From Myxococcota bacterium (GTDB taxonomy: Bacteria > Myxococcota_A > Polyangia > JAAYKL01), in the NCBI GenBank assembly GCA_030065855.1, contig JASJCT010000015.1, positions 16,724 through 80,723 of the forward strand: a DNA stretch of 64,000 bases, read 5' to 3'. How positions within the stretch are numbered: the stretch's first letter is position 1; every line of letters starts with the position of its first letter. The notes beneath the pieces were generated by a model, which saw nothing but the letters and a program-made list of their open reading frames with translations, was not told where the DNA came from and searched no databases. This document shows, one piece after another, positions 22,707 through 64,000 of this stretch. The position numbers were made by a program, and so were the translations under genes.

Positions 22707-22778
22707 GAACAGCAGCGAATCATAGGTTTGGCGCCAAAGCCCCCATACCCTCTGGGAAGTCCATCCCCTCTCCTCCCT

Positions 22779-23384: not shown

Positions 23385-23420
23385 CGCTATTTTCGCCGAT
23401 CCTTGTTCAACCTGTTTTGC

Positions 23421-48121: not shown

Positions 48122-51100
48122 CCCGATCCTCCGTTTGGATAAAGGCGTAGAGGGGGGTCTCGGCAATGAGCGGTCGAATGGTCCCGGGCGTGACCTCTTT
48201 TGGCAAGACCCCCTCTTCGCGAAAGATGCGCTGCACGAGCGCAGTGCAGGTCTTGCCACCGCAGCCCCCCATGCTGGGCCGGGCCAGGGATTTGAGTTGA
48301 TTCAAGTCCCGCACGCCAGCCCGGATCTCCCGTACAATTTCGCTCTTTCGAATCCGCTCGCAGCGGCAGACAATCGGATCTTCATCGTCGTCGAGCTTCT
48401 CTGTTGCAAGGGGTACCGAGGGACCCCGAATACTAAAGCCGGCAACGTTGAGGCGATCTTCAAACGGCACTGCCACCAGTGCCAACTTGCGGCGATCCTG
48501 ATCCTCCCGCTCCCGCACGGCGACGAGCTGACCCTTGCCCAGGGGCAGGCCATCGATATCGGTCGTCAGCACGTCTGTGCCCAGGTTTATTTTCTCATTG
48601 CCAAACTCAACCGGCAGGGAGACCAGGGCCAGGTTTTTTTCTTTGTCGTAGTCCTCTGCCACCAGGACGATGGCCAAGCCTGGGCAGCGAACCACGCAAC
48701 TGCCGCACCCCAAGCAGCCGCCCGAGTACTCGGGCAAGCCCATGATGCCGCCCGGCATGGAGATCAGGCCGTGGGGACACGCGGCAACGCAGGGGTCGCA
48801 TGGAATTTCCTGTACGCAGCGAATGACCGGAAAGATGGGTTCGCCCCCCTTGGGCACACGCCACGCTGTGGTCTTGCCAGGCCGACTGCGCAGCACTGCA
48901 GCCAGGGATTCCCAATGTTCTGGAATATCAATGGGCACGCCGCGGTCCCGGGCCAGCCTGCGGCCAACCATGCGCCCGGAAAAAATGGCAGCCGAGGCCT
49001 CGGCCACCTCGTCTGAATCGCCAGCAGCAACCACGTTGAGACCGTATTCCCGGGCCTTGGTTAAGATCTCATCCACTGGCGCAAGGCCCACGGCAATGAG
49101 CAACGTGTCAGCTTCAAAGGTCTGCTCAGTACCTGAAATGGGCCTGCCTGTTTCATCGATTTCAGCAATGGTAACCCGCTCCAGCCGCCCGTTCCCAGAG
49201 GCCTTGATGACCGAGTGCCGGGTCCATATGGGCACGCCGAGGCGCTTGATCTTGTCCGCATGGACCTTGTACCCACCGCATTCCGGCAAGGCTTCGACCA
49301 GGCCCACCACATCGATACCTGCCTGCAGGGCGTGATAGGCGCCGATAAGCCCCACATTGCCGCCGCCCAGGACAAAGAGCTTCTTCGAGGTCGAGATCAA
49401 ATCCCGATTGACCAGGGTCTGGAATGCACCGGCACCGTAGATCCCCGGCAGGTCGCACCCTGGGAACGACAGGGCCTTTTCCCGGGCCCCCAGGGCGACG
49501 ATCAACGTCTCGGGGGTAACCAGTCGATAACCCTGGGGCGTTGAAATGCCCACTTTGCCGTCTCCAAACAATCCCAGGGCCGTGGCCCGGGTCCATACGC
49601 GCACACTGGGCAAGGCAGCCACGTCGTCGGCCAGGTTTCTGCCAATATCAATGCCGCGGATGCCGGCGTAGCAATCAGCTGCGGATCCGAAAAACCCATG
49701 GGTCTGGAGGGTGAGCTTGCCCCCGAGCTCGGGCTTGTCATCGACCACGAGCACCTCGATCCCCACCCGCCCGAGCTCAATGGCAGCAGAAAGACCGGCC
49801 GGACCGCCCCCTAGCACGAGCACGGGCACGGATATTTCTTTTGGAAATCCCATTTTCTCTGGCCCGCTTGCAGGGGGAAGTGGTGGCAGGCCGTCACAGC
49901 GCTCAACTGTCATGCCAGGTTCCACAGGCACCATGCAGGATTTGACCATGCGGCCGTTGGCCATCACTGAGCACTGGGAACACTGACCATTGGCGCAGAA
50001 GATACCCTGGGCACCCCCGTCCCGGTGGTGGTGGCCAAAAACAGAAATACCAGCTGCAAACAGGGCCGACGCGATCATCTCGCCCTTCTGAGCCGGCAGT
50101 GTCTCACCTTCAAATGTAAATGATATGGGATCACTGGCCGGCGGTGTCAAAATCGGATGGGATGTGATGCGCCGCTCCCCCACAGCCGGTGTGTCGGTTT
50201 TATCGGACGTCTTTGATTGTCTGAAAGACGCGTATTTCTGAGATGCGGTGGTGCGGTAGGTGGGCAAAAACGGTACCCCGACATCGAAATGGGGGTCGCC
50301 CCATGTGGTATCTCGATGCGCGGCGAGCGCTTCCTGTTCGAGCAGCCACCCCGCAATGGTGGCCGCATCTCCTGGCATGGCCATGGGCACGTCTTGGGGA
50401 AGTCGATGCACCAGGACGGTCGGTTGTTGCTGTGTTATTTTCTGCTGAAAAGCGCGGATACTGGAAACCGGCCCTTCCCGGCCAGGCGCTGGCTCTGCAA
50501 ACGCGACCCGACCCGGGCCTAGCCCGACCGCGCGCGCTACTTGCTCAACCCGTTCCACGACCTGCCGCGCATGGGCTTCAGCACCGGCCAACCCGCAGGT
50601 GGGTTCGTGACGGCCCAGAACGAGGACACCGGCATACCCCCGTGCCAATGCACCCAACAACACAGCCGGCCGGATCCCGCCAGCACACGGCAGCTCGAGG
50701 ATATCGACGCCATGGGGCAGCCGGGGCGATGTCGGCGCCTTAAGGGCGCTGCGCGGACATGCCACTGCGAGGACCCGGCCCGTATCCTCCACCGGGATGG
50801 GCGGCAACTGGGCAGGCGCTACCCGGGGTTGATCGATGGCCCCACAAGGACATGCTGCCGAGCAAACCCCACAGCCGCGGCAAGCCTTGGGATCTATCAC
50901 TGCTCTGGATCGACCGTCTTGTTGCAGAACAACCCGGGCCACGGAAAATGGGCAAGCTGTCTCGCACACCCCACAGGCGATGCATCGCAAGGGGTTCACC
51001 GTACAGATGGCTTGGGGAAATGTTCGGTCCCAAATCGACAGCTGCCCCGGGGTTCGGGTGGACTTGATATGGCCGGTGGGACAGATCTTCGCGCAAGCAC

Positions 51101-51626
51101 CGCATCCGATACATGCCTCAGGCGGATCGTCAGCTGGGGTTCCAACCGTTTTTTTCTCCCCGCGATGCATGCGGGCAATGGCACTGGTGGCATAAGTATC
51201 GCAGACCCGGGTACACAGGCCGCACAGAATGCAGGTTTCATCTGTGGCAGGGAATTGGGTGTCCCCCACCCCCATGGATGTGGCCAGGGCTTGGATCGCC
51301 GGCACCTCAGGGCATCTGGCCAGCAGCATCTTTACGACCATTTGCCTGTGGCGCAAGACCTCCTCAGTGGCAGTGAACACGACAATGTCTGCCTGGGCCG
51401 GGTAATTGCAGGAGGTAACCAGCTTTTTGCGGCCGTTCACTGCTACCTGGACGAGGCATAGGCGACACGCGCCCAAGGGTTCAAGTGCCTCGTGATGGCA
51501 CAGGGAGGGGATCTCAAGGCCGAGTCGGCTCGCCACATCGATCAGGGGCTCGTGCAACCGGGCCTGGGTCTTTAGCCCATCGACAGTTAATTCGACATGT
51601 TGTTCTTTGGTTTCTCTCGTCATCAT
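48105..51626 (-). CDS. multidomain iron-sulfur flavoprotein: NuoG-type 2Fe-2S + 4x[4Fe-4S] + MvhD/FlpD-like module fused to an opine-oxidase-A/HcnAB/proline-dehydrogenase-alpha-like unit
   Basis: Start set at MMTRETKEQHVELTVDG. Motifs read in order (1-4): (1) CHHEALEPLGACRLCLV. (2) CILCGLCTRVC, CIGCGACAKICP, CIACGVCETACP, CRGCGVCSAACP. (3) LELPCAGGIRPAVLLGALARGYAGVLVLG...TCG. (4) FTFEGETLPAQKGEMIASAL...CANGQCSQC. Motifs (5-7): (5) VLVLGGGPAGLSAA and FVLGGGNVGLIGA. (6) CDPCVAACP and CLGCGSCVVRCP. (7) BFD-like CRCERI...GGCGGKTC. Confidence 0.7.
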   Translation of the reverse strand: MMTRETKEQHVELTVDGLKTQARLHEPLIDVASRLGLEIPSLCHHEALEPLGACRLCLVQVAVNGRKKLVTSCNYPAQADIVVFTATEEVLRHRQMVVKMLLARCPEVPAIQALATSMGVGDTQFPATDETCILCGLCTRVCDTYATSAIARMHRGEKKTVGTPADDPPEACIGCGACAKICPTGHIKSTRTPGQLSIWDRTFPQAICTVNPLRCIACGVCETACPFSVARVVLQQDGRSRAVIDPKACRGCGVCSAACPCGAIDQPRVAPAQLPPIPVEDTGRVLAVACPRSALKAPTSPRLPHGVDILELPCAGGIRPAVLLGALARGYAGVLVLGRHEPTCGLAGAEAHARQVVERVEQVARAVGLGPGRVAFAEPAPGREGPVSSIRAFQQKITQQQPTVLVHRLPQDVPMAMPGDAATIAGWLLEQEALAAHRDTTWGDPHFDVGVPFLPTYRTTASQKYASFRQSKTSDKTDTPAVGERRITSHPILTPPASDPISFTFEGETLPAQKGEMIASALFAAGISVFGHHHRDGGAQGIFCANGQCSQCSVMANGRMVKSCMVPVEPGMTVERCDGLPPLPPASGPEKMGFPKEISVPVLVLGGGPAGLSAAIELGRVGIEVLVVDDKPELGGKLTLQTHGFFGSAADCYAGIRGIDIGRNLADDVAALPSVRVWTRATALGLFGDGKVGISTPQGYRLVTPETLIVALGAREKALSFPGCDLPGIYGAGAFQTLVNRDLISTSKKLFVLGGGNVGLIGAYHALQAGIDVVGLVEALPECGGYKVHADKIKRLGVPIWTRHSVIKASGNGRLERVTIAEIDETGRPISGTEQTFEADTLLIAVGLAPVDEILTKAREYGLNVVAAGDSDEVAEASAAIFSGRMVGRRLARDRGVPIDIPEHWESLAAVLRSRPGKTTAWRVPKGGEPIFPVIRCVQEIPCDPCVAACPHGLISMPGGIMGLPEYSGGCLGCGSCVVRCPGLAIVLVAEDYDKEKNLALVSLPVEFGNEKINLGTDVLTTDIDGLPLGKGQLVAVREREDQDRRKLALVAVPFEDRLNVAGFSIRGPSVPLATEKLDDDEDPIVCRCERIRKSEIVREIRAGVRDLNQLKSLARPSMGGCGGKTCTALVQRIFREEGVLPKEVTPGTIRPLIAETPLYAFIQTEDRDDDII

Positions 51627-51720
51627 ACTTCGCTCAACGCTTAACTTAGTGATTTCTATAACAGACGGCAAAACCGCAACCAAGTGTTAAAAAACCCTAG
51701 CGCGAGGAAGAGAGGAAGAA

Positions 51721-51749: not shown

Positions 51750-51775
51750 GGCCAAAATCCTAAAGGAGGTGTGTG

Positions 51776-52039
51776 ATGACGGAACGCAAGAGCTATTCCC
51801 TTGTCTTCAGGTTTGAGGTGGAGGAGGATGTGGCGGAGAAACGCCTGGACGCCATTGCCGAAGAGATGGTCGCGCCGCTTCGCAAACTCGCGTCAAATCT
51901 AAAGGTCGAAACCCTTAAACAGACCTTTGGCAAGGAGATCGGCAACGTACGGCTGCGCGCCCTGCAGGAAGAGCTGGTCATTGAGAGCGGGGCAGCCAGC
52001 GGATACCAGGGCAAGCTCTGGGAAAAGGCCTGCTGCTGA
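51776..52039 (+). CDS. candidate RiPP precursor peptide (87 aa; helical acidic leader, C-terminal core ...SGAASGYQGKLWEKACC)
   Basis: GGAGG lies 6 nt upstream of the ATG. The stop is 14 nt before the radical SAM gene. The only Cys, Trp and late Tyr cluster in the last 12 residues, and the peptide ends in CC-stop. Confidence 0.6.
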   Translation: MTERKSYSLVFRFEVEEDVAEKRLDAIAEEMVAPLRKLASNLKVETLKQTFGKEIGNVRLRALQEELVIESGAASGYQGKLWEKACC

Positions 52040-52053
52040 CAGCCAGCGCGAAT

Positions 52054-53466
52054 ATGGAAATAGCTGTGCAGCAAATCCAGGGCCAGATGGGCTACACGCT
52101 CGCCCCTCACGCGGTCCTGACGGTGGGAGATCATCGCGTCATGATCTCACGCCTTTCCCGGGGTTGGGTGCTACTATCCCCGGGTGACTACCAAAGCCTC
52201 GTTGATTTCTTCGACGAACATACATCTGCTAAGCTAGACACAGAGAGTCGCCAGATCGCAGAGCGCCTGTACCGCCTCGGACTCGCGCTGTGTGATGGTA
52301 AGCTAGCAGAACACCTCACGCCGTCCATGCCGGCTTTTCCCGAGAGCCTGCTCATTAAAATGACAGGGCACTGCAACTACAACTGCGATTACTGTTACGA
52401 TCACTCAGAATCCAGACGCAAACAGGATGTGGATGTAGCCAGGATTGTAACCACGATAGATCCCATTCTCGATCAGACCGGTAAGCTCAATATCACGTTC
52501 CACGGCGGTGAGCCCCTGCTGCGGTTCAGCGCGATTTCACGCATTGTCGACCACTGTGCCGAGCGCCATGCTGACAAAGCCATTCGCTTTGCCATACAAA
52601 CCAACGGCGCTTTGCTGGACGACACAACAGTCGAATTTCTCGATCGTCATGACTTTAGCGTGGGCATCTCCCTGGACGGATCAACACCAGACACCAACCA
52701 CCATCGGGGCCCCAAGGCATTGGACCACTTCTGCAGGCTACTCGAGCAGTACCCCGCTTTTATGGAGAAGCGCTGTGGTGCGCTCTCGGTCATCTCCCAG
52801 GCCAACGTGCGCGCGCTGCCTGACTTTGCCCTGTGGCTCCAGGACCACGGAATCCGCGGCCTCTCCACAACTGTCCTGGACCCCACGGGCCGGGCAAAAG
52901 ATCTGAATCAGAGTATCGGGCCCCAAGAGATTACAGGGCTGTACGATGCCTGGCTGCAACTCGTCCGAGCCGAGCGTATCACCGACCTCAAAATACAAAA
53001 TTTATTGGCCTACATGGACAACCTGGCCTGCTTTGACCCACCCAATTTCTGTCAAAAGGGTCCCTGCGGCGCGGGCGGTGAGTTCCTCGTGCTCGACGCG
53101 GACGGCAGTTTTCGTGCCTGTGATTGCATCATCCACGACGCCTTTATTTTAGGAGATCATAAGTGTACGCTGGAGCAGGCACTGGACGCGCCGTCGAGAA
53201 GACGGGTGGTCGACCGACACGCCTGGCTGGTATCACATGGCCCCTGTGCTGACTGCCCGTGGATACACTTGTGTGGAGGCACCTGCGCGGCCAAGGCCCT
53301 TGGATGCGCTACGGACGAAAACGCCGTCTATCCCGTGGAGTGCGCGCTCAACAAGCACCTGTACCCCATCTTGCTCGAGGCCTATGCCAGCGAACCAGAG
53401 GGCGCCTTGTACCAATACTATCGCCGGCACTCAAAAGCGCGACAGCGGCAGAACCCAGTGGTTTGA
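52054..53466 (+). CDS. radical SAM / SPASM-domain peptide-modifying enzyme
   Basis: Radical SAM motif MTGHCNYNCDYCY (Cx3Cx2C, ~52372-52395). The SPASM signature is CGAGGEFLVLDADGSFRAC (C..Gx4C) plus CADCPWIHLCGGTC (Cx2Cx5Cx3C). A ~95-aa N-terminal extension before the cluster motif may be an RRE/PqqD-like domain. Confidence 0.85.
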   Translation: MEIAVQQIQGQMGYTLAPHAVLTVGDHRVMISRLSRGWVLLSPGDYQSLVDFFDEHTSAKLDTESRQIAERLYRLGLALCDGKLAEHLTPSMPAFPESLLIKMTGHCNYNCDYCYDHSESRRKQDVDVARIVTTIDPILDQTGKLNITFHGGEPLLRFSAISRIVDHCAERHADKAIRFAIQTNGALLDDTTVEFLDRHDFSVGISLDGSTPDTNHHRGPKALDHFCRLLEQYPAFMEKRCGALSVISQANVRALPDFALWLQDHGIRGLSTTVLDPTGRAKDLNQSIGPQEITGLYDAWLQLVRAERITDLKIQNLLAYMDNLACFDPPNFCQKGPCGAGGEFLVLDADGSFRACDCIIHDAFILGDHKCTLEQALDAPSRRRVVDRHAWLVSHGPCADCPWIHLCGGTCAAKALGCATDENAVYPVECALNKHLYPILLEAYASEPEGALYQYYRRHSKARQRQNPVV

Positions 53467-54254
53467 TGGGTAACGCAGCCGACACGCTCATCGACCGCAT
53501 TGCAGCCTCTCTTCCACTGGATTCCACATGCATCACTGACCTGCCCGAAGCCGCAAGCGTGGACTCCTTTGATCCAGCCGTGCACGCCAAAGCCTGGTGG
53601 TGTTATGGGGTTGCAGCGCGCGCTTCAGGAGCTCCCCTCATCGACGAGCAGACCTTTCTGAAGGGATATTTTAGGGCTTTTTGTGACTTCTACCTGGCTG
53701 CGGCCCAGGCGCGCGAGGGTGACGGTAGCCCCTTGGAGAGGGGCCTCCCTCCCATTGTCTGTACAGCCCACTTCCCCAGCTATCCGCTTTACATGCGCGC
53801 GTTTAGGGAACGCGGCGCTTGTGTCCTGATCAGTCGCCGGGCTACTTGGATGGGCGATGGATGGCTGCAATCCGTGCATGAAAAAGGGGCCTTGAGCGCA
53901 GTGACGCAGGCTGTCCAAAAGGGGCGATCCATTGTGGCGATGATCGACCATGCCTTCCCAACAACCAGTAATGCGCCCATCCCTTTTCTCGGTTTGCCTT
54001 GCGCCACGCCCATGGGCTTGTTTGCGCTGGCCTCGCGCATGTCTCTCGGTATGGGCCTGCTCGTACCAGGGAACAACAGTGAACCAGAGGTTGTTGATTA
54101 CCCTGCAACAGCCAACATGGTACCTGGAACACTGGCTGCGGCCATGCTTCGGGATCTCAGCCGGGTTATTATGAAGACCCCAGAGCGCTGGCTGCTCTGG
54201 CCAAATCTAAACCATCGCTGGGAGCAAGACGCAGATTTATTTGACCTGGACTGA
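53466..54254 (+). CDS. LpxL/HtrB-like (lipid A biosynthesis acyltransferase family) protein with degenerate HX4D motif
   Basis: The ATG overlaps the rSAM stop (TGATG). The family-like C-terminal block is PERWLLWPNLNHRW (compare the PxQYxWxHxRW pattern I recall for LpxL). AHFPSYPLY occupies the position where the family has HxGNWE. Confidence 0.55.
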   Translation: MGNAADTLIDRIAASLPLDSTCITDLPEAASVDSFDPAVHAKAWWCYGVAARASGAPLIDEQTFLKGYFRAFCDFYLAAAQAREGDGSPLERGLPPIVCTAHFPSYPLYMRAFRERGACVLISRRATWMGDGWLQSVHEKGALSAVTQAVQKGRSIVAMIDHAFPTTSNAPIPFLGLPCATPMGLFALASRMSLGMGLLVPGNNSEPEVVDYPATANMVPGTLAAAMLRDLSRVIMKTPERWLLWPNLNHRWEQDADLFDLD

Positions 54255-54309
54255 TGCAAATATTGTAAGGATTGCGACGGTGATGATGTTCTGGAATACA
54301 GCGGGATTC

Positions 54310-55785
54310 TTAAAGTATATTGAAATCCCACCTGAGCTTGGCCCAAACCCTATCGTGTCGCTTGGCACCGGAGAGCATGCCGACCTCGATGCCGGGCTGG
54401 TATGTAATAAAGCCCAGGCCGGCCTTGAGGCCGTCGAGGATGGTGTAGCTGACCGTGGCGCGGGCCAACCAACCGTGCTGGGCGTTCCAGCCGAAGAGGA
54501 TTCCAGCTAACGCCAGGGTCATGTCGCCGTCGAGCACGTCGTGGGTGTAGCGCAGGGCGATCGATGGCTCTTCCACTGGGAATAGGACGTCGGGCAGATC
54601 TTCCAAGAGCCAGCTCTTCTTGATTTCGAGAAAGAGCATGGTGTCCTTAAGGCCTGAGTAGGTGATGCCTAGCAAGCCGCCGATGGAGGCGGCTTGTTCG
54701 TCGGAGAGCTCGGGTTGAACCGCTTCCTGATCACCGGTGTTGTAGTTTCTATCCTTTTCGGCACTGATTTCCCACTTGAACAACCAGCTGTCTACAGGCC
54801 AGGCACCCGAATGGCCGACCATGATGTAGCGGTGATGGTTGAGTACGATGTCCGTGCTGCGATCGATGATGATGCCCGAGAGGAGCGCCTGGTAGTCCAA
54901 CTCGATCACCCCCTGCTGATCGAGTACCGAGGCAACGTAGAGGGCCAGGTCGATGCCCGGTCCTTTGTAACCCCAGCGCAAGAGTACCTGCTGGGTGTTC
55001 AGGCTGAACAGGGCCTGTTTGTGTTTGTACCAAACCGGAGTGGTGGAGAGAAACTCCACTACATCGTCGGGTAGAAAGGCCGGCAGCGGGCTGAACAGGC
55101 CAAATGGCGGCGGTCGGTAGCCAAAGTTCGATTCGTGGATCACCAGCGCCTCGATGCGATGATAGCCGACAAACAACCCGATACGGGTGGAGAGAACCGG
55201 CAGGCGTAAGTCGTCGAGATCGGCTAGCCCTGGTTCCCGCAAATCACGCGGGCTGGCCACATCTACTAAACTGACCATGTCCCCTTCTCCCCAAACCACA
55301 ATTTGGCGCCCTATGCTCAACTCCACCTCACCAAAGGTCACGGCCAGGTATGACTCCCGCACATCTAATAACCACTCATAAGCATCGAGGGTGGGTTGAT
55401 CGTAGCTGTCCCGCTGGTAGAGGTAGGCAACGTCGTACTCCCCATGGCCTGAAACAACCAGGCGCAAGATCTCCCCTTTGTACCGCAAGACCAGATCGAG
55501 GTTCTGGCGCCCCTTGGCAAAGGGATTGTCCTCGAACCGCTCGGTCCACAGTGCCCATTCGGTCCTGAAAAAGCCACCCAAACGCCAGCGTGATGGGTTT
55601 TCCCCGCCTGCGCTCTCTTCGATTCCGGCCATGACGTCGGCGGACACATCGGCAAAGCCCGCACTGTCCGCGTCTTCGCCCCACCCTTCCCCGTCACCCC
55701 AGTCGTCCTCCGAGGAGGAATCCTCTGCAGTTAGACTATTGTCAGCACAAATCAGCCCCGGAGAGAGTAACTCGGCAAGAAGCAC
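54310..55785 (-). CDS. DUF1302-family outer-membrane beta-barrel-like protein
   Basis: The block SIGRQIVVWGEGDMVSLVDVASPRDLREPG matches the DUF1302 RQxVxWGE signature. The body is long, beta-rich and aromatic, ending in ...RWDFNIL. The start codon is uncertain: GTG at 55785, and the signal peptide may begin upstream. Confidence 0.65.
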   Translation of the reverse strand: MLLAELLSPGLICADNSLTAEDSSSEDDWGDGEGWGEDADSAGFADVSADVMAGIEESAGGENPSRWRLGGFFRTEWALWTERFEDNPFAKGRQNLDLVLRYKGEILRLVVSGHGEYDVAYLYQRDSYDQPTLDAYEWLLDVRESYLAVTFGEVELSIGRQIVVWGEGDMVSLVDVASPRDLREPGLADLDDLRLPVLSTRIGLFVGYHRIEALVIHESNFGYRPPPFGLFSPLPAFLPDDVVEFLSTTPVWYKHKQALFSLNTQQVLLRWGYKGPGIDLALYVASVLDQQGVIELDYQALLSGIIIDRSTDIVLNHHRYIMVGHSGAWPVDSWLFKWEISAEKDRNYNTGDQEAVQPELSDEQAASIGGLLGITYSGLKDTMLFLEIKKSWLLEDLPDVLFPVEEPSIALRYTHDVLDGDMTLALAGILFGWNAQHGWLARATVSYTILDGLKAGLGFITYQPGIEVGMLSGAKRHDRVWAKLRWDFNIL

Positions 55786-55838
55786 GGCGCAGCACAGGGT
55801 CCGGGCGTGATTTCTATCTGTGATGGTGAAAGGCAGTG

Positions 55839-56675
55839 CTAGAGCCCTTTCTCCAGTCGCCGCTCGGTGAACTCCGCGTCGGTTACAGATGCCTGATTGT
55901 ATTTCAGGGAATGGTACATCATCACCGTGGTCGATTCGACTTTTCCATTTTTCAAGGTTCGCACGGTTAGTCTATGGGCTGTCCAGATGTCGTCTACTTT
56001 TCGAATGTCGTCGAATTTCATGTACTTGAGTTTCCGCCCTTCCTTGACCCATATCTTGGCTTGAATCGGCATCAGCTTGGACTTGCTGATCCAATAGTGG
56101 GACTTAAGATAACCGGTCTCCTTCTGCTCTTTGGCTGTTTTGGGTCTGGCCTCGATCAACCAGCAATCTTCATTGTCGACCTTCATGGACTGCTCGATCA
56201 TCTTGTAGTCATAGGCATCTATGTCCTTTTTCGTCATATCCGAGTAAGAGATATCAGTGCCCAGAAAGGCACCCGACTTGTCAGAAGTAGAGATACGAGT
56301 CGATTTGCGCAGACTGGGTAGATAGAGCCACTGATCGTCGTCCTTGGCCCCCTCATCATAGTCGATAGACAACAGTCCGGTATTGCGCATATCAGGAGGG
56401 CTCTCGAACAGCATCAACATCTTTCGTCCGCCGTTGAATTCAAGCGATTTCGAGTAGAGGACGCGTTCTCGTTTGCGACCCGAGCTGTCGATCAGGGTCA
56501 TCGACACTTTGGAGAGCACCTTGTCCCCATCATCCCGATCCTCCATCGCCTGCGCAATCTTGCGCGGATCAGATGTATTGGGATCTAGGGCTCGCGCCTC
56601 TGTGCTCATGGTGACCAAGGCCACTGTCAATCCACATCTAAACAAGAGAGCAGTAAATCCATAACTTTGTTTCAT
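55839..56675 (-). CDS. LolA-like outer-membrane lipoprotein-sorting protein family
   Basis: Signal peptide. Size (~250 aa mature) and sequence style match the LolA_like proteins found next to MMPL exporters. It begins 13 nt after the MMPL stop. Confidence 0.6.
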   Translation of the reverse strand: MKQSYGFTALLFRCGLTVALVTMSTEARALDPNTSDPRKIAQAMEDRDDGDKVLSKVSMTLIDSSGRKRERVLYSKSLEFNGGRKMLMLFESPPDMRNTGLLSIDYDEGAKDDDQWLYLPSLRKSTRISTSDKSGAFLGTDISYSDMTKKDIDAYDYKMIEQSMKVDNEDCWLIEARPKTAKEQKETGYLKSHYWISKSKLMPIQAKIWVKEGRKLKYMKFDDIRKVDDIWTAHRLTVRTLKNGKVESTTVMMYHSLKYNQASVTDAEFTERRLEKGL

Positions 56676-56688
56676 TCGATATTCCTTT

Positions 56689-59244
56689 CTACAAACGCTT
56701 TTCTCTCGGTTTGGATCGGTAGGCCAACCTCAGCAAGGCCGGTCCGACAATGAGATCGAAGAGAAGCGCAAAAATAATGGCCAACCCGGCCAGCGCACCG
56801 AACCGCGCCAGGGGATACATGGTTGCTGCCAGAAACACCAAGAAACCCATGACCAAAATGATGCTAGTGCTGGTCATGGCGCGCCCGGTATGGGAAAAGG
56901 CGTGATCAATAGCCGCATCCACATCGCCGTAGTCCGCATAATGAACCCTGAATTGATGGAGAAAGTGGATGGTGTCATCCACGGCAATACCGATGACGAT
57001 TGAAGCAATAATCAGATTGGCCGTATCCAGGGGAATCGAGGCAAAGCCCATGATCCCCATAACTGAAACCACGGGTAGCAGGTTGGGTACCATCGAAATC
57101 AACCCCAGCTTAATGTCTCGCAGCAATAAAACCATCACAATCGTAATGGCTATAAAAGCAACCCCAAAGCTTCGGATCAGATCCGATATTAACGCGCTGA
57201 CCACCGTAGACACGCAAAACACTGAACCGGTTGTCTTAATGATGGCTCTGTCACCAATAAACTCCTCAACCCCCTTGGCAATATGTGCGGTCAATGGCTT
57301 GTAAGACCAAGCGTCCATCCAATTGACGCGGATGGTCATCAAACTCTTCACAAAGTCGACGGTTGTCAGTCTTTTCAGTTGATCTGGAGCTGCATTTTCA
57401 AAGAGGGTAAACATATCGACCACACCGCGTTCTGTATCTGGAATCCGATAAAAGGCCTGATTCGACTCGTTAACCGCTCTCCAGCTCTCGCGGATCACGT
57501 CGAGCAGACTGGTGGTCGTACCCACAATGGGTTGCGTACTCTTTGGATCCTGATAAGCGCTGATGTGGTTTTCTAGTTTTTCAAGTTGTATCAGCAGATC
57601 GCGATCCTTGAGATTTTGATCTTCTTTGGCACTGATCAGCAACGCCACATTTGCCGTCCCACCCACATGTCGATCCATCTCGTCCATGGCCTGACGAATA
57701 TCCCGATCCTCGGGAATCCAGCTCAGGGCATCATGGTGCACCACCAGGGTTGTGGCCCCAGCGGCAACAATCAAGGTAAAGCCTGCTGAGACCCAAAGCG
57801 TCATTCGCCTGCGCAGATGCTGATTCGCCCCCTGTCCCGCACTTGGACGTGACAGATAGTTACAAAAATTCAAAAATCGATTGAGCAGGTCACGGCGAGT
57901 CTCACCTGGCTTGACACCCAACAGACTCTTGTTGTTGAACGAGAGCATCACCGGGAGGAAAACCAGCGAGTGGATCAGCGTCACGGCAATACCCAGTGCA
58001 CCAAATGTCCCCATATCGATGATCGCCCCCAGGGTTGCAAAGCGAAAGCTAATCAGCCCCACTGCCGTCGTTAACGTGGTGTAAAACACCGGAACACCGG
58101 TTGTGGATATGGCGTAGATGATCGCCTGCTGATTGGGGATTCCCCGACCGCGCCCATCTCGATACACCGACTGAATATGAACCGAGCCCCCCACGCCGAC
58201 GCAGGCCAAGAATGCGGGCAAGACATTGGTCAGCATGGTCATCGGCACGCCGGATATGGCCATCGCGCCGAGGGTCCACCCCGCTGACTGCCAGACCACC
58301 AACACCGGCCCGATAATGCCGAGGGGATGACGGAAAATCAGCGCCAGCACCAAGGTCATTACCGCCAGTGCAATCAGGGTCAGGCGATAGAAATCCTGCA
58401 ACATCATCTCGTTTAGAGATGCATTGAAGGCGGGCAATCCAGCCACGGAGATGTGAAATCCGTCGTGATGGTGTTTATCTGTAATCGCCACAACCTCGCG
58501 GAAGACGCGATCCAAATCTCTCTCATCTAGAAAATCGGTTCTGACGATGACCACCGAGTGCCGCCCCTCAGCCCCTACCACCTGCCCTACTAGGACCTCG
58601 TCGTTCAACACGCGCTGCTTCAACGCGGGCAGATCCGCTTTGGTGGGCCATTCGTCCAGCAGACCGGCCACCTCGAGCCCCCCGCCCTTCCATGCTGTCC
58701 GGCGAACATTGATCAATGAGATGATCTCTTCGACAATGGTGCTGCCGCCCTCATCTCCCCAACCTTCATCCCCGTCAAATCCCTCGAAACCAGCCGGATC
58801 ATTTGCAGTAGCAGCACCAACGGCATCTGACCCGTCATCAACAGGGCTTGCACGAAACGGATCGTCCACTTGCTTGGCACTTTTGCCTCGCCGTCGTTGC
58901 CCCAGGCTGTTGAGCTGCAGATCGATCACTGCTAAATCGTCGTGAAGCGCTTTCAACCGCTCCAGATAAGACATGGAAAAGACATCGCCTTCCACGAGTA
59001 TCTGGTAAATGTTGTCCTGGCCGAAGTCATCGTACAGCTCGTCGAGAACGATGATTTCGTCAGCTTTGTCCCCCATGAAGGCCTCGGTGGAATTGTCGAT
59101 GGTCAGCTTGTCCCAGGCCTGGTACCCCATAAAGCCGGTGATGGTGAAGTTGAGCACCAGAAAAATCCAGCGAAAGCGAAGCACGCATTCCCCCCAGCGT
59201 CTGAAAAAGGGATTCTGCGGAGCAGAATACGGATCGGTTGACAC
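56689..59244 (-). CDS. MMPL/RND-superfamily exporter
   Basis: 851 aa with a GTG start and two TM bundles. The SSD-type segment is IGIAVDDTIHFLHQF. The large first periplasmic loop carries an acidic insertion. Confidence 0.8.
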   Translation of the reverse strand: MSTDPYSAPQNPFFRRWGECVLRFRWIFLVLNFTITGFMGYQAWDKLTIDNSTEAFMGDKADEIIVLDELYDDFGQDNIYQILVEGDVFSMSYLERLKALHDDLAVIDLQLNSLGQRRRGKSAKQVDDPFRASPVDDGSDAVGAATANDPAGFEGFDGDEGWGDEGGSTIVEEIISLINVRRTAWKGGGLEVAGLLDEWPTKADLPALKQRVLNDEVLVGQVVGAEGRHSVVIVRTDFLDERDLDRVFREVVAITDKHHHDGFHISVAGLPAFNASLNEMMLQDFYRLTLIALAVMTLVLALIFRHPLGIIGPVLVVWQSAGWTLGAMAISGVPMTMLTNVLPAFLACVGVGGSVHIQSVYRDGRGRGIPNQQAIIYAISTTGVPVFYTTLTTAVGLISFRFATLGAIIDMGTFGALGIAVTLIHSLVFLPVMLSFNNKSLLGVKPGETRRDLLNRFLNFCNYLSRPSAGQGANQHLRRRMTLWVSAGFTLIVAAGATTLVVHHDALSWIPEDRDIRQAMDEMDRHVGGTANVALLISAKEDQNLKDRDLLIQLEKLENHISAYQDPKSTQPIVGTTTSLLDVIRESWRAVNESNQAFYRIPDTERGVVDMFTLFENAAPDQLKRLTTVDFVKSLMTIRVNWMDAWSYKPLTAHIAKGVEEFIGDRAIIKTTGSVFCVSTVVSALISDLIRSFGVAFIAITIVMVLLLRDIKLGLISMVPNLLPVVSVMGIMGFASIPLDTANLIIASIVIGIAVDDTIHFLHQFRVHYADYGDVDAAIDHAFSHTGRAMTSTSIILVMGFLVFLAATMYPLARFGALAGLAIIFALLFDLIVGPALLRLAYRSKPREKRL

Positions 59245-59286
59245 TATGATATCACTCCTCGTCGTGCGCTACTGCATGATGTCTGA

Positions 59287-62200
59287 TCACGTGCATACAC
59301 CTGTAGATTCGCCGCTGAATTCACATGGCACACAGTGTTCACCCAAGTTACATGTCGTCCTCGTAAACAACAGTTTCTCCAGCGTGTCGAGGTAGCATCC
59401 CGGAACGCACGCGCCAGGATCACCAGCGGCAACGCCGCCTGCCGTACAAGTTGGAAATCCATTGACAGCTGGATCCAAAATGATCGAATTCGGCGCACAG
59501 AGGTGGTTTTCCTGAGTGCAACTATCCTGGACCACCTGATCGCCTAATTCGGCGGGAATAAGTTCACTGGGCACACAGGTACCGATCTGGACCCCTTCCT
59601 CTTCACAGCACTTGTCAAACACCACCGGCAGATGCTGCGGCCCCGGATCCCCAGGGAGATGACACGCGCCGGTTGCCTCACCGGTAAACGGATCGAAACA
59701 AGGGGAACAACGGCTGTTCTCCGGGCATCCAGTTTCCGGTAACAGAGCCCCTTGAGTCGCCACCCAAGGTAGGCAGTCGGGCAGGCAACGTCCTTCTAGA
59801 TCGGCAAAAGAGGTGCACGTCGTCGGAATGAAACCATCATCCTGGAAATCGTCTGGGACACAGAGCAATCCCTGGTCTGGCGAACACACATCATCGCCAA
59901 GCATGGTCTGTTGCTCTGCTGAGATGAGCGCCTTAGGCAGGCAGCGTCCCTCACTGTCACAACAGGTTTCAAACACCACTGGCGGGCGGACCGGCCCTGA
60001 ATCCCCGGGGAATTCGCAAGCACCAGTGGCAATACCGGTATAGAGATCGTAGCAGGGAGCGCACAAATGATACTCAGGACAGATATCCTGGGGCAACCAT
60101 CCTGCCTGTTCGGCAATGGCCGGGAGGCACTCTGGCAAACAGCGCCCTTCGGCATCGATGATGGAATAGCAGTGCGACGGTGCTGTCTCCTCGACGATAA
60201 AATCCGGTGCACAGAGCAGGTCCTGCCCCTGCGCACAGGTATGCTCACTGAGCTGTGCCTGCTGATCGACCGAAACCAGTGTATCTGGCACACAACGGCC
60301 CAATCCCTCACAGCAGCGGTCAAAGATCACAGCCGGTTCTGTCGGACCGGGATCACTGCCCATCTCGCAGATCTCCGTATTGTCTCCTGAAAATGGATCG
60401 TAGCACGGTGCGCAGCGCTCACCTGCTTCACAGACATCCTGTACCAAAAAGGCCTGTCCAGCAGCGGCGGGCAAGCACTTGGCTACACAGCGTCCCTCGG
60501 CAGCCAAAATTCCGTGACAAGTGGTCGGAATAAAGTCGTCCACTAGAAAATCATCGGGAACACACAAGAGACCATAGCCACTGGTGCAGACATCCAGGCC
60601 AAGATGGGGGTGTTGATCCTCGGGGATCATCGCTTGGGGCACGCAGGTACCTGCCTCATCGCAGCATGCCTCGAAGACTACCGGCTCCAGGGCAGGTCCC
60701 GGATCTCCGCCCATGCGGCATACCCCTGTGTCCTCGCCGGTAATTGGATCGTAACACGGTGCACACCGATAAAACGGCGGGCACAAATCCTGTGGCAGGT
60801 CGTCTTGCTGCGCTGCAATTTCCGGCAGGCAAATCGGTGCACACCGGCCCTCACCGCCATAGGGCAACCGACACATCTCAAGCACAAAGTCCGCTTCCAA
60901 AAACGCGTCCGGTACACAGCGCAGGGTCTCATCCCCAGTACAGGTATCAGAGCCCAGGCTCTCCAGGTCCTGTTGGGGAATGAGGTCCTTGGGGATGCAG
61001 GTGCCAAGCTCCCCGCAGCAGGCATCGAACACCACGGCAGGCTCTGTAGGTCCTGGATCATCCCCGAGCTCGCAAAGTCCGGTGGCATCTCCTGTGAATG
61101 GGTCATAGCAAGGTGCACACAGGTGGTGCGCAGGGCAAATATCTTGATAGAGGGAATCCTGTTCCTCGGCGATTTCCGGCAGACAGGTCGATATGCAGCG
61201 GCCCTCGGCCTCTAGTACGCCGTGGCAAGTGGTGGGGACAAAGCCGTCCTCCATGAAATCGTGGGGCACGCAGAGCAATCCCTGATTGGCTGTACACGCG
61301 TCGAGGCCGAGGTGGGACTGTTGATCACCTGAAATCAGCCATTCGGGCACACAACTTCCCAAACCATTGCAACAGGCCTCAAACACCACTGGTTCCAAGG
61401 TCGGACCGGGATCGCCCCCCAACTCACAAAGCCCCGTCGATATCCCGTCCGTGGGATCATAACAGGGCGCACAGCGATAGTTTGCAGGACAGATGTCCTG
61501 GGGGAGATCGTCCTGTTGGCCTGCCACATCCGGCAGGCAGATCGGGACACAGCGACCTTCTGCACCCAAGGTGGACCGGCACATATCCAGCACAAAATCT
61601 TCCTCGAAAAAATCGTCGGGAGCGCAAAGCAGCGCTTCATCCCCTTCGCAGGTATCCGGGCCGAGATGATCCAGCTCATTTTCGGATATCAAGCCTGCTG
61701 GAATGCAGCTACCCCCCCCATTGCAACAGGTATCGAACGTCACTGCCGGTTCAGTCGGGCCAGTATCCTCGCCCATCTCGCAGAGCCCGGTGAGGTCGCC
61801 GGAAAAGGGATCATAGCACGGCGCACACAGGTATTTTTCAGGGCATATATCTTGGTACAATAGATCCTTATTTTTTGCCATCTCAGGAAGGCATTCGGGT
61901 ACGCAGCGCCCCTCAGCGCCAAGGACCCCGTGACAAGTGGTCGGAATGAATCCCGTTTCTATAAAGTCGTCAGGCACGCAGAGCAGGCCCTGGTTTTCCG
62001 GACACATGTCGATACCTAGATGCTCCTGCTGATTTTGGGGAATCAATGACAGGGGCACACAGCTGCCCAAGTCGTCACAGCACGTCTCGAAAAGTACCGG
62101 CTCCATCAAAGGCCCTGGATCACCCCCCAGCTCGCACAGGCCGGTGGATTCGCCATCGAACGGATCGTAGCAAGGAGCACAGCGGTAGTAGGCCGGACAG

Positions 62201-62874
62201 ACATCCTGCGGCAGGCCGTCCATCTGATCCGCCACTTCCGGCAGACAAATGGGCACACATCGTCCCTCAGCCCTCTGCGTTGAACGACAGGAGGCGAGCA
62301 CGAAATCATCCTGTCGAAATTCTTCTGGCATGCAGAGCATCGGCCCATCACCGTCACAGGTATCCACCCCAAGGCGAGATTGATGCTCGGCTGGGACCAG
62401 CTCGGTTGGGATACACCATCCCTGTTCATGGCAACATTTGTCAAAGGTCACGGCTGGCTCAGCCGGCCCTGTGTCATTGCCCAAATCGCACAGCTCGGTC
62501 GTGTTTCCGTCAAATGGATCGTAACAAGGGGCGCAGAGGTAATGTTCCGGACACTGATCCTGAGGAAGCAGGTCCTCCTGCTCAGCAATATCGGGCAGGC
62601 AACTCGGCAGACAGCGGCCTTCGGCATCCAGCGTTGAACGACAAGACGCGGGCACATAACTATCGAACGCGACAAATTCGGTCGGAAGACACAAGTAGTC
62701 CACATCGCAGCTATCTCGATTGAGAAACGCAACGTTTTCGTCCGGTACCAAGCTGCTGGGCAAGCAACTCCCCAAATCGTGACAGCAAGACGGTAGGGGT
62801 TCGCCACGACTTGACTCCCCGCACCCGAGCAAACATCCGATAAATATTGTAAAGCAACACCGCCAAAACATCAT
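59287..62874 (-). CDS. giant lipoprotein composed of ten ~115-aa cysteine-rich repeats (12 Cys per repeat)
   Basis: Start set at MMFWRCCFTIFIGCLLGCGESS (lipobox LLGC), with GGAGG upstream. The repeat consensus is CCxxxGxCxP..L.P......LGxDxC.....LCxPDxF...xF...C......EGRCxPxCLP.......LxQDxCP..YxCAPCYDPFxGxxTGxCExGxDPGPxEPxVxF. The tenth unit is truncated. Confidence 0.8.
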   Translation of the reverse strand: MMFWRCCFTIFIGCLLGCGESSRGEPLPSCCHDLGSCLPSSLVPDENVAFLNRDSCDVDYLCLPTEFVAFDSYVPASCRSTLDAEGRCLPSCLPDIAEQEDLLPQDQCPEHYLCAPCYDPFDGNTTELCDLGNDTGPAEPAVTFDKCCHEQGWCIPTELVPAEHQSRLGVDTCDGDGPMLCMPEEFRQDDFVLASCRSTQRAEGRCVPICLPEVADQMDGLPQDVCPAYYRCAPCYDPFDGESTGLCELGGDPGPLMEPVLFETCCDDLGSCVPLSLIPQNQQEHLGIDMCPENQGLLCVPDDFIETGFIPTTCHGVLGAEGRCVPECLPEMAKNKDLLYQDICPEKYLCAPCYDPFSGDLTGLCEMGEDTGPTEPAVTFDTCCNGGGSCIPAGLISENELDHLGPDTCEGDEALLCAPDDFFEEDFVLDMCRSTLGAEGRCVPICLPDVAGQQDDLPQDICPANYRCAPCYDPTDGISTGLCELGGDPGPTLEPVVFEACCNGLGSCVPEWLISGDQQSHLGLDACTANQGLLCVPHDFMEDGFVPTTCHGVLEAEGRCISTCLPEIAEEQDSLYQDICPAHHLCAPCYDPFTGDATGLCELGDDPGPTEPAVVFDACCGELGTCIPKDLIPQQDLESLGSDTCTGDETLRCVPDAFLEADFVLEMCRLPYGGEGRCAPICLPEIAAQQDDLPQDLCPPFYRCAPCYDPITGEDTGVCRMGGDPGPALEPVVFEACCDEAGTCVPQAMIPEDQHPHLGLDVCTSGYGLLCVPDDFLVDDFIPTTCHGILAAEGRCVAKCLPAAAGQAFLVQDVCEAGERCAPCYDPFSGDNTEICEMGSDPGPTEPAVIFDRCCEGLGRCVPDTLVSVDQQAQLSEHTCAQGQDLLCAPDFIVEETAPSHCYSIIDAEGRCLPECLPAIAEQAGWLPQDICPEYHLCAPCYDLYTGIATGACEFPGDSGPVRPPVVFETCCDSEGRCLPKALISAEQQTMLGDDVCSPDQGLLCVPDDFQDDGFIPTTCTSFADLEGRCLPDCLPWVATQGALLPETGCPENSRCSPCFDPFTGEATGACHLPGDPGPQHLPVVFDKCCEEEGVQIGTCVPSELIPAELGDQVVQDSCTQENHLCAPNSIILDPAVNGFPTCTAGGVAAGDPGACVPGCYLDTLEKLLFTRTTCNLGEHCVPCEFSGESTGVCT

Positions 62875-63178
62875 AGAACGCCTCCCCGTTACCCGGCAAA
62901 AACCATCCCCGATATCTTTCATCTTGCCGAAAAAGAATAAATGGTATGGCGAAAACATAAGTAGAATAAAAACACTTTTAGAAGCTTTACCTCAATGATT
63001 TTGCTCAGCCTGCCGATGTTCGAGCAAGTCGTCTAAGATTGCATCGAGGAGCAGGTCTTTGAATAAAAAGTATGAATTACCCGCGCGGGAAAGGGTATGC
63101 AGAGTCGTCCGAGATTGTGATCCCGGACTCAGAAGCATGTGCGAAATCATAATTCGGAACTAGATTATTGAATCAGCA

Positions 63179-64000
63179 TCAGTCAAACAGGTGGCTGACC
63201 TTGATCATGAAGATCTGTTCTCGTTCTTCTTTGTCGAGATAAGAGAGGCTTTTCCGCAGTGAGGGGCTGCTTCCAGGGACATCCGCGAATCCGCCATGGG
63301 TGTATAGGACATAGAGGACGCTGCCGGGGCGGTATTCCCAGCGCAGTAGGGTTTGCATATTGAGCTGAGTGCCGCCCATGTCGGCTGCTTCGTCGGCATA
63401 ATCGATGGGAGACGTGGTATGCTTGTTTTGCAGCCAATGATAGTCAGAATAATCTGCCGCATAAGACAGAAGTTGCGCTTGCACTTGGAAAGTCAGATCG
63501 CGCCTCAGCACCAGGGTGCCGCCAAAGTTGAGATCGAACTGATCAACGGTTCGCTTGCCGATAATTGTTCTATCGGTGCCGAGGTCGTCGACTACCGTGT
63601 CAACATACGCCTTCTGCCCTTCCATGTGGGACAGTTTAGGGGTCACGCTTAGTTCTAATCGACCCAGTCGCAGTATACCCGAGACTTGTGTCTCGATACC
63701 ATATCCATAGGGTAGGCGGGTCACCAGGAAAGTCATATTCGCACCAACCTTCCAGTGCATGGGTGTGGTCAGATAAACCCACCCATCCAGATGCCTTGGA
63801 AGATACAATAGCGGACCACCCCTGGTTTCCATGTCGTCATAGTGCGCATTGCTGATATCTATGACGACGTTCGATACCCAACCACCACCGAACATCGCGG
63901 CGATTTCTCCGGTCAGCCAGTGGCCGAGGTCGACGCCATCCAGGTTGAGCGAACCACGCAACGTCAGACTTGCGATGGCAATATCGAAGGGTCCCCATCG
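63179..64000 (-). CDS. C-terminal part of a beta-rich (probable outer-membrane barrel, possibly DUF5916-like) protein; 5' end outside window
   Basis: The frame is open to the window edge. It has alternating-hydrophobic beta-strand character with frequent aromatic residues and ends in ...IFMIKVSHLFD. The family guess is weak. Confidence 0.45.
   Translation of the reverse strand, partial: RWGPFDIAIASLTLRGSLNLDGVDLGHWLTGEIAAMFGGGWVSNVVIDISNAHYDDMETRGGPLLYLPRHLDGWVYLTTPMHWKVGANMTFLVTRLPYGYGIETQVSGILRLGRLELSVTPKLSHMEGQKAYVDTVVDDLGTDRTIIGKRTVDQFDLNFGGTLVLRRDLTFQVQAQLLSYAADYSDYHWLQNKHTTSPIDYADEAADMGGTQLNMQTLLRWEYRPGSVLYVLYTHGGFADVPGSSPSLRKSLSYLDKEEREQIFMIKVSHLFD

Follow-up and report, generated by a model that had tools for sequence, protein, structure and literature searches.

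A four-gene unit of a Myxococcota genome linking a giant Cys-repeat lipoprotein to a putative trans-envelope export module

The window analyzed here is a stretch of 64,000 nucleotides (nt) from a Myxococcota metagenome-assembled genome (MAG; GenBank assembly GCA_030065855.1, contig JASJCT010000015.1, positions 16,724 to 80,723), in which four minus-strand genes encode a giant Cys-repeat lipoprotein, an RND-superfamily pump, a LolA-like periplasmic carrier and a DUF1302-family outer-membrane barrel. Comparison with related loci shows that these genes form a conserved unit, the arrangement of which goes beyond chance. That the four are functionally coupled, whatever their cargo may be, is well supported and highly probable. 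We favor the reading that the lipoprotein is the cargo of a trans-envelope export module that would deliver it to the cell surface, and assign a probability of roughly 0.42 to it. The independence of such a module from the Lol and Slam routes, proposed in a first-pass annotation of this DNA, is only inferred. Two of the deposited proteins, QNJ97_05785 (lipoprotein) and QNJ97_05770 (barrel), are each 100% identical to the products of the window. The four genes are the following:

59287..62874, minus strand: giant Cys-repeat lipoprotein gene (1,195 amino acids [aa]; open reading frame [ORF], ribosome-binding site and lipobox)
56689..59244, minus strand: RND-superfamily inner-membrane transporter gene (Pfam MMPL, HAE3-like; 851 aa)
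55839..56675, minus strand: periplasmic LolA-like carrier gene (PF17131 / TP_0789-like by Pfam; 278 aa)
54310..55785, minus strand: DUF1302-family outer-membrane beta-barrel gene (Pfam; 491 aa as called)

All four ORFs lie where the first-pass annotation had placed them and are co-directional; the gaps of 42, 13 and 53 nt that it reported are confirmed as read from the ORF calls, and its family assignments (MMPL, LolA-like, DUF1302, lipoprotein) proved right by the Pfam matches and the reading of the lipobox.

The closest barrel found on a long contig, P0124, shares 61% identity with that of the window, and its locus (L102) is arranged in exactly the same way: a gene for a 950-aa Cys-repeat lipoprotein (56% identity, lipobox VIVIGC) is followed by those for an MMPL pump (65%), a LolA-like protein (71%) and the DUF1302 barrel (61%). 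At a further locus, L004, the four-gene order is partly conserved, and the Cys-repeat gene overlaps the MMPL gene by 4 nt. Since the flanks of L102 and L004 are unrelated to those of the window, the four-gene block is a syntenic unit, which bears out the earlier proposal that the four genes belong together.

The same association emerges when the lipoprotein is taken as the starting point. The genomic context was read for the 12 closest lipoprotein homologues, the window included, and nine of them (the window, P0002, P0003, P0008, P0009, P0010, P0014, P0016, and P0027) are found together with a transporter gene, a PF17131 gene and one for a homologous barrel, the three unlinked ones being P0004, P0006, and P0061 of Sandaracinus amylolyticus. 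Among the nine, an RND pump is present only in the window and at P0002, whereas the others have an ABC pump that consists of an ATPase and a fused double FtsX/MacB_PCD permease. The best NCBIfam matches of these two proteins are LolD (TIGR02211, 6.2e-64) and LolC/E (TIGR02212, 3.9e-32), respectively, both below cut-off, and by these matches the pump is a lipoprotein-release-type, LolCDE-like machine. In all, at least 8 Polyangia loci other than L102 and L004 combine a long Cys-repeat lipoprotein with homologous LolA-like and barrel genes and a LolCDE-like type VII ABC pump. Their barrels are 32-35% identical to that of the window (9e-69 to 9e-88) and their LolA-like proteins 34-37% (~1e-55), so that the ABC-type loci hold true homologues of the window's genes. 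In L001, L098, L099, and L101, the lipoprotein and barrel genes share 4 nt. The pump has thus been swapped between two unrelated classes, while lipoprotein, carrier and barrel stay.

In total, 14 distinct loci show the linkage; they represent three gene orders and two pump classes, and all come from uncultured genomes. A greedy clustering of neighboring ORFs, which is noisy owing to antisense ORFs in high-GC loci, returned the barrel as the most recurrent neighbor family. Linkage depends on the length of the lipoprotein: it was seen for 10/15 members of at least 900 aa, a class enriched through the choice of loci looked up, for 1/8 of 700-900 aa, 2/27 of 400-700 aa, and 1/41 below 400 aa (3/68 when pooled below 700 aa).

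The lipoprotein itself belongs to a family that databases do not cover. Its reading frame is open to 62958, and an ATG at 62874 is preceded by a GGGGAGG ribosome-binding site 6 nt upstream. From this ATG, the N terminus reads MMFWRCCFTIFIGCLLG followed by C, and the signal peptide was scored as ending in a lipobox of the type [LVI][ASTVI][GAS]C, lipidation being predicted from the sequence alone.

62821..62832, minus strand: lipobox L-L-G-C that closes the signal peptide (residues 15-18; read from sequence)
59299..62796, minus strand: ten repeats of ~118 aa with 12 conserved Cys each

A permissive lipobox-like pattern occurs within the first 60 residues of 80/104 Met-initiated homologues, and the listed N termini mostly resemble genuine lipoprotein signal peptides. 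The public annotation of the protein (QNJ97_05785, P0001, 1,158 aa) begins 37 residues after the start favored by the ribosome-binding site (window 62763-62874); as it omits the signal peptide and the lipobox, the protein is not recognizable as a lipoprotein in databases.

The repeat units alternate in type between odd and even positions, and the last one is a divergent C-terminal cap. The number and spacing of the 12 Cys per repeat are invariant, and the protein as a whole is acidic, with 124 Cys (10.4%), 206 Asp+Glu, and 40 Lys+Arg. Given that the units are only 52-67% identical at the DNA level and that Tandem Repeats Finder detected no tandem-repeat array in the gene, the array is old and no assembly artifact. 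Searches of Pfam and NCBIfam with the lipoprotein and the 118-aa repeat gave no match at E <= 0.01, and a profile search of the PDB with the repeat returned only hits with E = 0.3 or worse. An AlphaFold2 model of two consecutive repeats reached a mean predicted local distance difference test score (pLDDT) of 91 and a predicted template modeling score (pTM) of 0.80, and Foldseek found nothing in the PDB for it at E < 1 (best E = 1.1). The lipoprotein has at least 191 homologues; all named members come from Myxococcota, mostly Polyangia, and a double-repeat profile retrieved 735 cluster representatives (50% identity) among 1.84 billion. Patterns derived from the whole lipoprotein were too specific for a scan of the genome collection, which was therefore made with a single-repeat alignment; dereplicated by species, it gave 79 loci, all in Myxococcota. 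When long linked and unlinked members were compared, no N- or C-terminal signal peculiar to the linked ones was detected, and both share the C-terminal cap and the Cys-x-x-Tyr-x-Pro tether. The Cys-repeat lipoproteins thus make up a sizeable uncharacterized family that appears not to have been described previously.

A separate group of loci (L010, L011, L014) encodes shorter Cys-repeat lipoproteins preceded by two conserved upstream genes of unknown function, for a product of ~690 aa and a ~590-aa lipoprotein. L011 and L014 contain a convergent gene for a DUF1302-type barrel, extended N-terminally by a long Pro/Glu/Gln-rich stretch, and have no pump or carrier within 9 kb; in L014, a gene for a B12-radical S-adenosylmethionine (SAM) enzyme (KedN5-like) adjoins that of the barrel.

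The pump of the window matches the Pfam family MMPL (PF03176) in two stretches (6.9e-29, 101.3 bits, cut-off 20.5), and sterol-sensing and Patched families match as well. Its best NCBIfam match is HAE3 (TIGR00921, 1.3e-63); as the 215.2 bits fall below the cut-off of 351.9 bits, the protein is, by sequence, HAE3-like and not assigned by the curated HAE3 model. A crude hydropathy scan placed clusters of membrane-spanning segments at about residues 285-434 and 668-833 with large loops between them, and further single segments near 25-45 (by eye) and at 484-502. Only HpnN and NPC1, both weak, were found as relatives in the PDB.

The carrier covers positions 2-184 of the 184 of the PF17131 profile (1.5e-49, 168.6 bits, cut-off 30), as compared to 26.4 bits on DUF1329. 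Its closest solved structure is 9TP6, LolA3 of Porphyromonas gingivalis (5.6e-40), and 3BK5 and 4Z48 match too. As read directly, its N terminus, MKQSYGFTALLFRCGLTVALVTMSTEARA followed by LD, is a Sec-type signal peptide with the cleavage site between EARA and LD. It has no lipobox, the Cys at residue 14 following an Arg, and the protein is soluble and periplasmic by sequence.

The match of the barrel to DUF1302 (PF06980) is weak and partial, restricted to residues 100-207 (5.7e-09, 36 bits, cut-off 23.2); nearly all of its 117 homologues carry a precomputed PF06980 assignment. Its AlphaFold2 model (pLDDT 89, pTM 0.85) is a large barrel with a disordered stretch at residues 1-59, an acidic N-terminal tail, and is related by Foldseek to OccAB3, AlgE, and OpdO with a probability of 1.00 and TM scores of ~0.5-0.57. 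An AlgE/Occ-like fold of 18 strands has been published for DUF1302 (PMC13499233), 18 being the published figure and not a count on our model. A PDB sequence search with the barrel profile returned nothing, and only the fold comparison gave relatives.

The called start of the barrel gene is anomalous. From the GTG at 55785, the ORF encodes only a truncated signal peptide (MLLAELLSPGLICA), whereas homologues have normal Sec signals, so that the true start is probably upstream and the 53-nt gap may be shorter. The in-frame codons upstream of 55785 read ...ITDRNHARTLCCAV and resemble the missing n-region (window 55785-55838), and no ATG, GTG or TTG occurs in this in-frame stretch. The anomaly is explained by a non-canonical start, at the ATC 55824 or the CTG 55797, or else by an error in the sequence of the MAG.

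Pump and barrel have a short sequence feature in common:

58705..58791, minus strand: acidic motif GF..DEGWGDEGG-TIVEEIISLINV of the pump (residues 152-180), within periplasmic loop 1 (sequence)
55645..55710, minus strand: acidic motif EDDWGDGEGWGEDADSAGFADV of the barrel (residues 26-47), within its disordered N-terminal extension (sequence)

The loop-1 motif is present in the trio-linked MMPL pumps of the window, L102, L004, L085, and L096, and absent from the unlinked MMPL paralogues of the window and of L102. An acidic W/F-G short motif (DEGWGDE / DDWGD / GFxD) is thus common to trio-linked pumps and DUF1302 barrels, and such motifs were found within the first 140 aa of 75/117 barrel homologues. 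The motif shared by pump loop and barrel tail may be a docking site for the LolA-like carrier, since a single short linear motif at both ends of the route would suit carrier docking at both.

From these observations a route can be proposed in which the four-gene operon would encode a module for export across the envelope, its fourth partner being specific to the lineage. Both pump classes are known to handle lipidic moieties of the inner membrane's periplasmic leaflet (LolCDE, MacB, HpnN, and MmpL3), and acyl chains are shielded by proteins of the LolA fold. Once the lipoprotein has been exported by Sec and lipidated, the pump would take its acyl anchor from this leaflet and hand it to the hydrophobic groove of the LolA-like carrier, which would dock on the barrel and pass the lipoprotein over; the repeat rod would then form an assembly with the barrel or pass through it, to be exposed at the cell surface. 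A common dock at which the carrier is loaded and unloaded would be provided by the acidic WG motif of the pump loop and of the N-terminal tail of the barrel. As the acyl anchor of the lipoprotein is the constant cargo encoded within the linked loci, a dedicated Lol-like route to the barrel is favored. Counted in support of the lipoprotein as cargo are the short gaps, the ribosome-binding sites, the lack of terminators at the junctions, the gene order shared with L102 and L004, the linkage of nine of the 12 closest homologues, the homology of carriers and barrels between the ABC-type loci and the window, the exchange of the pump around a constant set of partners, the LolCDE-like pumps, the gene overlaps, the length-dependent linkage, the lipobox in most family members, and the WG motif of pump and barrel. 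Precedents are provided by Slam, a barrel whose gene adjoins that of its lipoprotein cargo (PMC5449769), and by Aat, a MacB-type system that secretes a lipidated protein (PMC7943197). Extended to Polyangia as a whole, the proposal of a dedicated, modular route for surface lipoproteins, with a LolCDE-like ABC or HAE3 RND extractor, a PF17131 (LolA3-type) ferry, and a DUF1302 installer, is a tentative one.

Several observations weigh against the lipoprotein as cargo. Within the lipoprotein family, a barrel is nearby at only 5/79 of the dereplicated loci, 74/79 being unlinked, and P0004 and P0006 are unlinked even though they are long and have the same N-terminal tether. The 100% linkage of the ABC-type loci in the barrel tree is ascertainment-biased because these loci were found through the lipoprotein. 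On the barrel side, two marine metagenome loci (L085 and L096) contain MMPL, LolA-like and barrel genes that are 44-59% identical to those of the window and in the same order, with no Cys-repeat gene in the 6.4 kb (L085) or 4.9 kb (L096) upstream. Moreover, the MAG that contains L102 encodes a 54%-identical DUF1302 paralogue (L103, 1-11590) without the other partners, directly downstream of genes for a megasynthase resembling polyunsaturated fatty acid synthases (with the domains KS, KS, FabA, and FabA), a CapK-like ligase, and a phosphatidylserine decarboxylase, which hints that some DUF1302 barrels serve the export of a specific lipid. Together, the trios without a Cys-repeat gene and the lipid-gene setting of L103 imply that the core module has other cargo elsewhere. 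To our knowledge, no RND pump extracts or moves a lipoprotein, and we know of no PF17131 protein with a demonstrated role as lipoprotein carrier. A folded protein of 1,170 residues with ~60 potential disulfides could not cross an 18-strand barrel. Deletion of LolA3 caused no phenotype in Flavobacterium johnsoniae (PMC13103446, PMC11885536), and what has been published on the phenotypes of related HAE3/DUF1302/DUF1329 cassettes points to small hydrophobic molecules or a component of the envelope rather than to lipoproteins (PMC6394551; 10.1101/072470). The present data fit the lipoprotein as cargo and as accessory partner alike.

The co-occurrence in relatives that the first-pass annotation had asked about is thus real at the linked loci, but most family members are unlinked and some trios lack the lipoprotein. 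That annotation had also named a pattern that would speak against coupling, namely, a trio conserved in relatives without the lipoprotein gene, the latter being inserted only here. Trios without the lipoprotein do exist (L085, L096), but the lipoprotein is not confined to the locus of the window, so that the pattern does not hold as a whole. Since there are trios without the lipoprotein and most family members are unlinked, the coupling is facultative rather than obligate. The core trio is thus the older and more general module and the lipoprotein a lineage-specific addition, one that has been kept across two pump classes and several gene orders. The barrel-centered metagenome scan, made with a four-sequence alignment, yielded 12 mostly short loci, all of the RND type; given this small sample, the frequency with which a barrel is accompanied by a Cys-repeat gene is poorly sampled, above all in the ABC clade.

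The existence of the core trio without the lipoprotein, together with the barrel paralogue in a lipid-synthesis cluster, also speaks for the main rival explanation, that the lipoprotein is an accessory subunit (a cap, plug, stabilizer or surface extension of the barrel) of an exporter of lipids or hydrophobic compounds, with a role akin to that of DUF1329 or the BNR propeller in proteobacterial cassettes or of LptE for LptD. We regard this as rather unlikely, albeit as a serious competitor. The related AmeABCD cassette confers monoterpene tolerance (PMC6394551), DUF1302, DUF1329, BNR, and RND genes show cofitness and have been proposed to export an envelope component (10.1101/072470), and a DUF1302-DUF1329 complex was predicted by AlphaFold-Multimer (PMC13499233). 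The overlap of lipoprotein and barrel genes fits a stoichiometric complex, and the canonical fourth component, BNR, is missing here, which leaves its slot free. However, an accessory role leaves unexplained why the pump of the sister loci is LolCDE-like and why, within a broad family, only the long forms are linked; furthermore, a 10-repeat rod is far above the size of any known barrel-plug lipoprotein, and lipid-biosynthesis genes are not conserved beside the Cys-linked loci.

Two other explanations are considered improbable. The resemblance of DUF1302 barrels to substrate-specific channels of the Occ/OprD and AlgE type, the very acidic and Cys-rich nature of the lipoprotein, by which it could bind cations, and the occurrence of DUF1302/DUF1329 genes in catabolic islands for aromatics and steroids (10.1101/072470) would agree with a surface receptor in an uptake or exchange system, in which the lipoprotein binds metal ions, a polymer or prey material and supplies or gates the DUF1302 channel in the way known from SusD and SusC, pump and carrier handling a hydrophobic ligand. 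Catabolic genes are, however, not conserved around the Cys-linked loci, and the invariant number and spacing of the Cys residues fit structural disulfides. RND and type VII ABC transporters, moreover, are established as exporters or extractors, not importers. Just as little weight is given to a merely shared neighborhood, that is, co-regulated or parked cell-surface genes whose products act independently: the linkage is indeed absent for most family members and for the more distant trios, and the promoter structure leaves room for internal promoters, but 14 distinct loci with three gene orders, two pump classes and often overlapping stop and start codons speak for more than this, as does the presence of the barrel subfamily in 5/79 neighborhoods against a rough, uncomputed expectation of ~1% (few copies in a ~10 Mb genome).

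Part of the system has been described before, the combination of an HAE3-RND pump, a LolA-superfamily protein and a DUF1302 barrel being an already known cassette type. In contrast, the Cys-repeat lipoprotein family, its recurrent operonic linkage to PF17131 and DUF1302 genes, and the replacement of an RND pump by a LolCDE-like ABC pump inside one homologous system appear to be new; full-text searches on DUF1302, on PF17131/LolA-like proteins, and on myxobacterial Cys-rich lipoproteins brought up no description of the family, the linkage or the pump exchange. DUF1302 barrels and LolA3/PF17131 carriers are widespread and conserved, and neither has a known substrate. How bacteria beyond the Neisseria Slam paradigm bring lipoproteins to the surface is an open question, and in F. 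johnsoniae surface lipoproteins are still surface-exposed when no LolA or LolB is present (PMC11885536). The linked loci supply a concrete candidate cargo from the same operon as well as a natural experiment in which two unrelated pumps serve one set of carrier, barrel and lipoprotein, and both questions, on substrate and on surface export, thereby become directly testable. If the lipoprotein is indeed the cargo, PF17131 and DUF1302 would obtain a first cargo and function, an RND pump would for the first time be seen to mobilize a lipoprotein, and a new repeat fold would form a surface fiber.

The anatomy of the block agrees with an operon. Purine-rich ribosome-binding sites precede the first three genes, that of the pump starting with a GTG (GAGGAG ahead) and that of the carrier with an ATG (AAGGA ahead), and no terminator-like site or hairpin was detected in any of the three junctions. 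Downstream of the barrel gene a convergent gene ends at 54254, so that the four-gene unit closes there. Upstream lies the only gap roomy enough for an operon promoter, and we infer that the promoter would be located in it:

62875..63178, minus strand: AT-rich intergenic region of 304 nt upstream of the lipoprotein gene (candidate promoter site)

No convincing match to a sigma-70 promoter was found in this 304-nt spacer, and no Rfam family or riboswitch in 54000-64000. The G+C content differs among the genes (lipoprotein 57.2%, pump 53.6%, carrier 49.8%, barrel 58.1%), and amino acid composition (Cys/Gly/Pro/Asp-rich versus Lys-rich) may be behind this.

Among the neighbors of the block, a radical SAM/SPASM enzyme (52054-53466) was considered as a maturase of the lipoprotein and rejected, as no other linked locus has a counterpart; likewise, counterparts of an acyltransferase-like gene and of the DUF5916 gene upstream are missing from the other linked loci. 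The stop of an 88-aa ORF with the terminal residues ...GKLWEKACC is 15 nt away from the radical SAM/SPASM peptide maturase that follows it (both in window 51773-53466, plus strand). The best NCBIfam matches of the enzyme are maturases of the PapB, CbpB, and SCIFF type, none of which reaches its cut-off. The 88-aa ORF is more likely to be the substrate of the enzyme than the lipoprotein is, and the two look like a precursor-maturase pair for a ribosomally synthesized and post-translationally modified peptide, with no relation to the lipoprotein operon. The gene at 53259-54254 (plus strand), which runs toward that of the barrel, weakly matches a domain of lipid A acyltransferases (PF03279, 6.9e-06); because ~200 nt of its ORF lie within the end of the radical SAM gene, it probably begins later than called. 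Further away, 48105-51683 (minus strand) encodes a 1,192-aa iron-sulfur flavoprotein with 2Fe-2S, several 4Fe-4S, FlpD/MvhD-like and pyridine-nucleotide-disulfide oxidoreductase domains (HdrA-like), which suggests an anaerobic or microaerobic lifestyle of this Myxococcota bacterium. The second MMPL paralogue at 24234-26714, which had been noted as lacking partners, does so: it is a Pfam MMPL protein (1.1e-34) with a PilZ protein and unknowns as neighbors, and no LolA-like or barrel match was found near it. Beside it are a fragment of an RHS-repeat protein (21762-22706) and the gene for the PilZ-domain protein (23421-24062), both within 21762-24062.

Parallels exist between this unit and several known systems. 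The first-pass annotation had referred to an MMPL, LolA_like and DUF1302 trio from Proteobacteria, which is right in outline, but the published proteobacterial cassettes, of the AmeABCD or Sama_1588-1591 type, contain DUF1329 as the LolA-superfamily protein and a BNR/Ycf48-like propeller in addition to the HAE3 RND pump and the DUF1302 barrel. They have been proposed to span the envelope and to handle hydrophobic cargo, with the substrate unresolved (PMC6394551; 10.1101/072470; PMC13499233). The window likewise encodes an HAE3-like RND pump, a DUF1302 barrel and a periplasmic LolA-superfamily protein together, and its carrier also scores weakly on DUF1329. It differs in that the carrier belongs to PF17131 and not to DUF1329, that a gene for a giant Cys-repeat lipoprotein leads the operon, and that the sister loci replace the RND pump by a LolCDE-like ABC transporter; no BNR propeller protein is encoded among the four genes or their neighbors. 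In Borrelia, BBJ23-BBJ29 comprises a MacB-like ABC transporter, a LolA-like protein and an Omp85 barrel and is known from prediction only, as is the route proposed here; its barrel is not of the DUF1302 family, and it comes with no candidate cargo gene. CglB of the Glt machinery of Myxococcus xanthus has no sequence relationship to the lipoprotein, consists of a single VWA domain and is accompanied by no pump or LolA-like carrier, but it is a Cys-rich outer-membrane lipoprotein adhesin, the exposure of which is governed by dedicated barrels (PMC9946355).

Three further systems move lipidated proteins. In the Aat system of enteroaggregative Escherichia coli, MacB-like AatPC, TolC-like AatA and the acyltransferase AatD secrete lipidated dispersin, and a type VII ABC transporter and an outer-membrane channel thus move one specific lipidated protein encoded nearby (PMC7943197); the outer-membrane component is a different one, there is no LolA-like carrier, and the cargo is glycine-acylated by a dedicated enzyme. 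The Lol pathway (LolCDE-LolA-LolB) likewise combines an inner-membrane extractor, a soluble carrier of the LolA fold, an outer-membrane acceptor and a lipoprotein, and the pumps of the ABC-type sister loci best match LolC/E and LolD, all below the curated cut-offs. The unit in the window, in contrast, has an RND pump and neither an ABC transporter nor LolB, its acceptor is an 18-strand barrel, and the system would serve one neighboring cargo, whereas Lol is general. Moreover, its carrier falls into the family of LolA3 and TP_0789, which forms no pair with LolB (PMC13103446); LolA3 itself fails to bind LolB and has no known function (PMC13103446; PMC11885536). Slam (DUF560), found in Neisseria and other Proteobacteria, has no dedicated inner-membrane pump or carrier, and its 14-strand barrel with tetratricopeptide repeats is unrelated to the AlgE/Occ-like 18-strand fold of the DUF1302 family. 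It shares with the unit described here a barrel that is encoded beside the lipoprotein it is thought to bring to the surface, and for Slam such adjacency predicts the cargo successfully (PMC5449769, PMC8406197).

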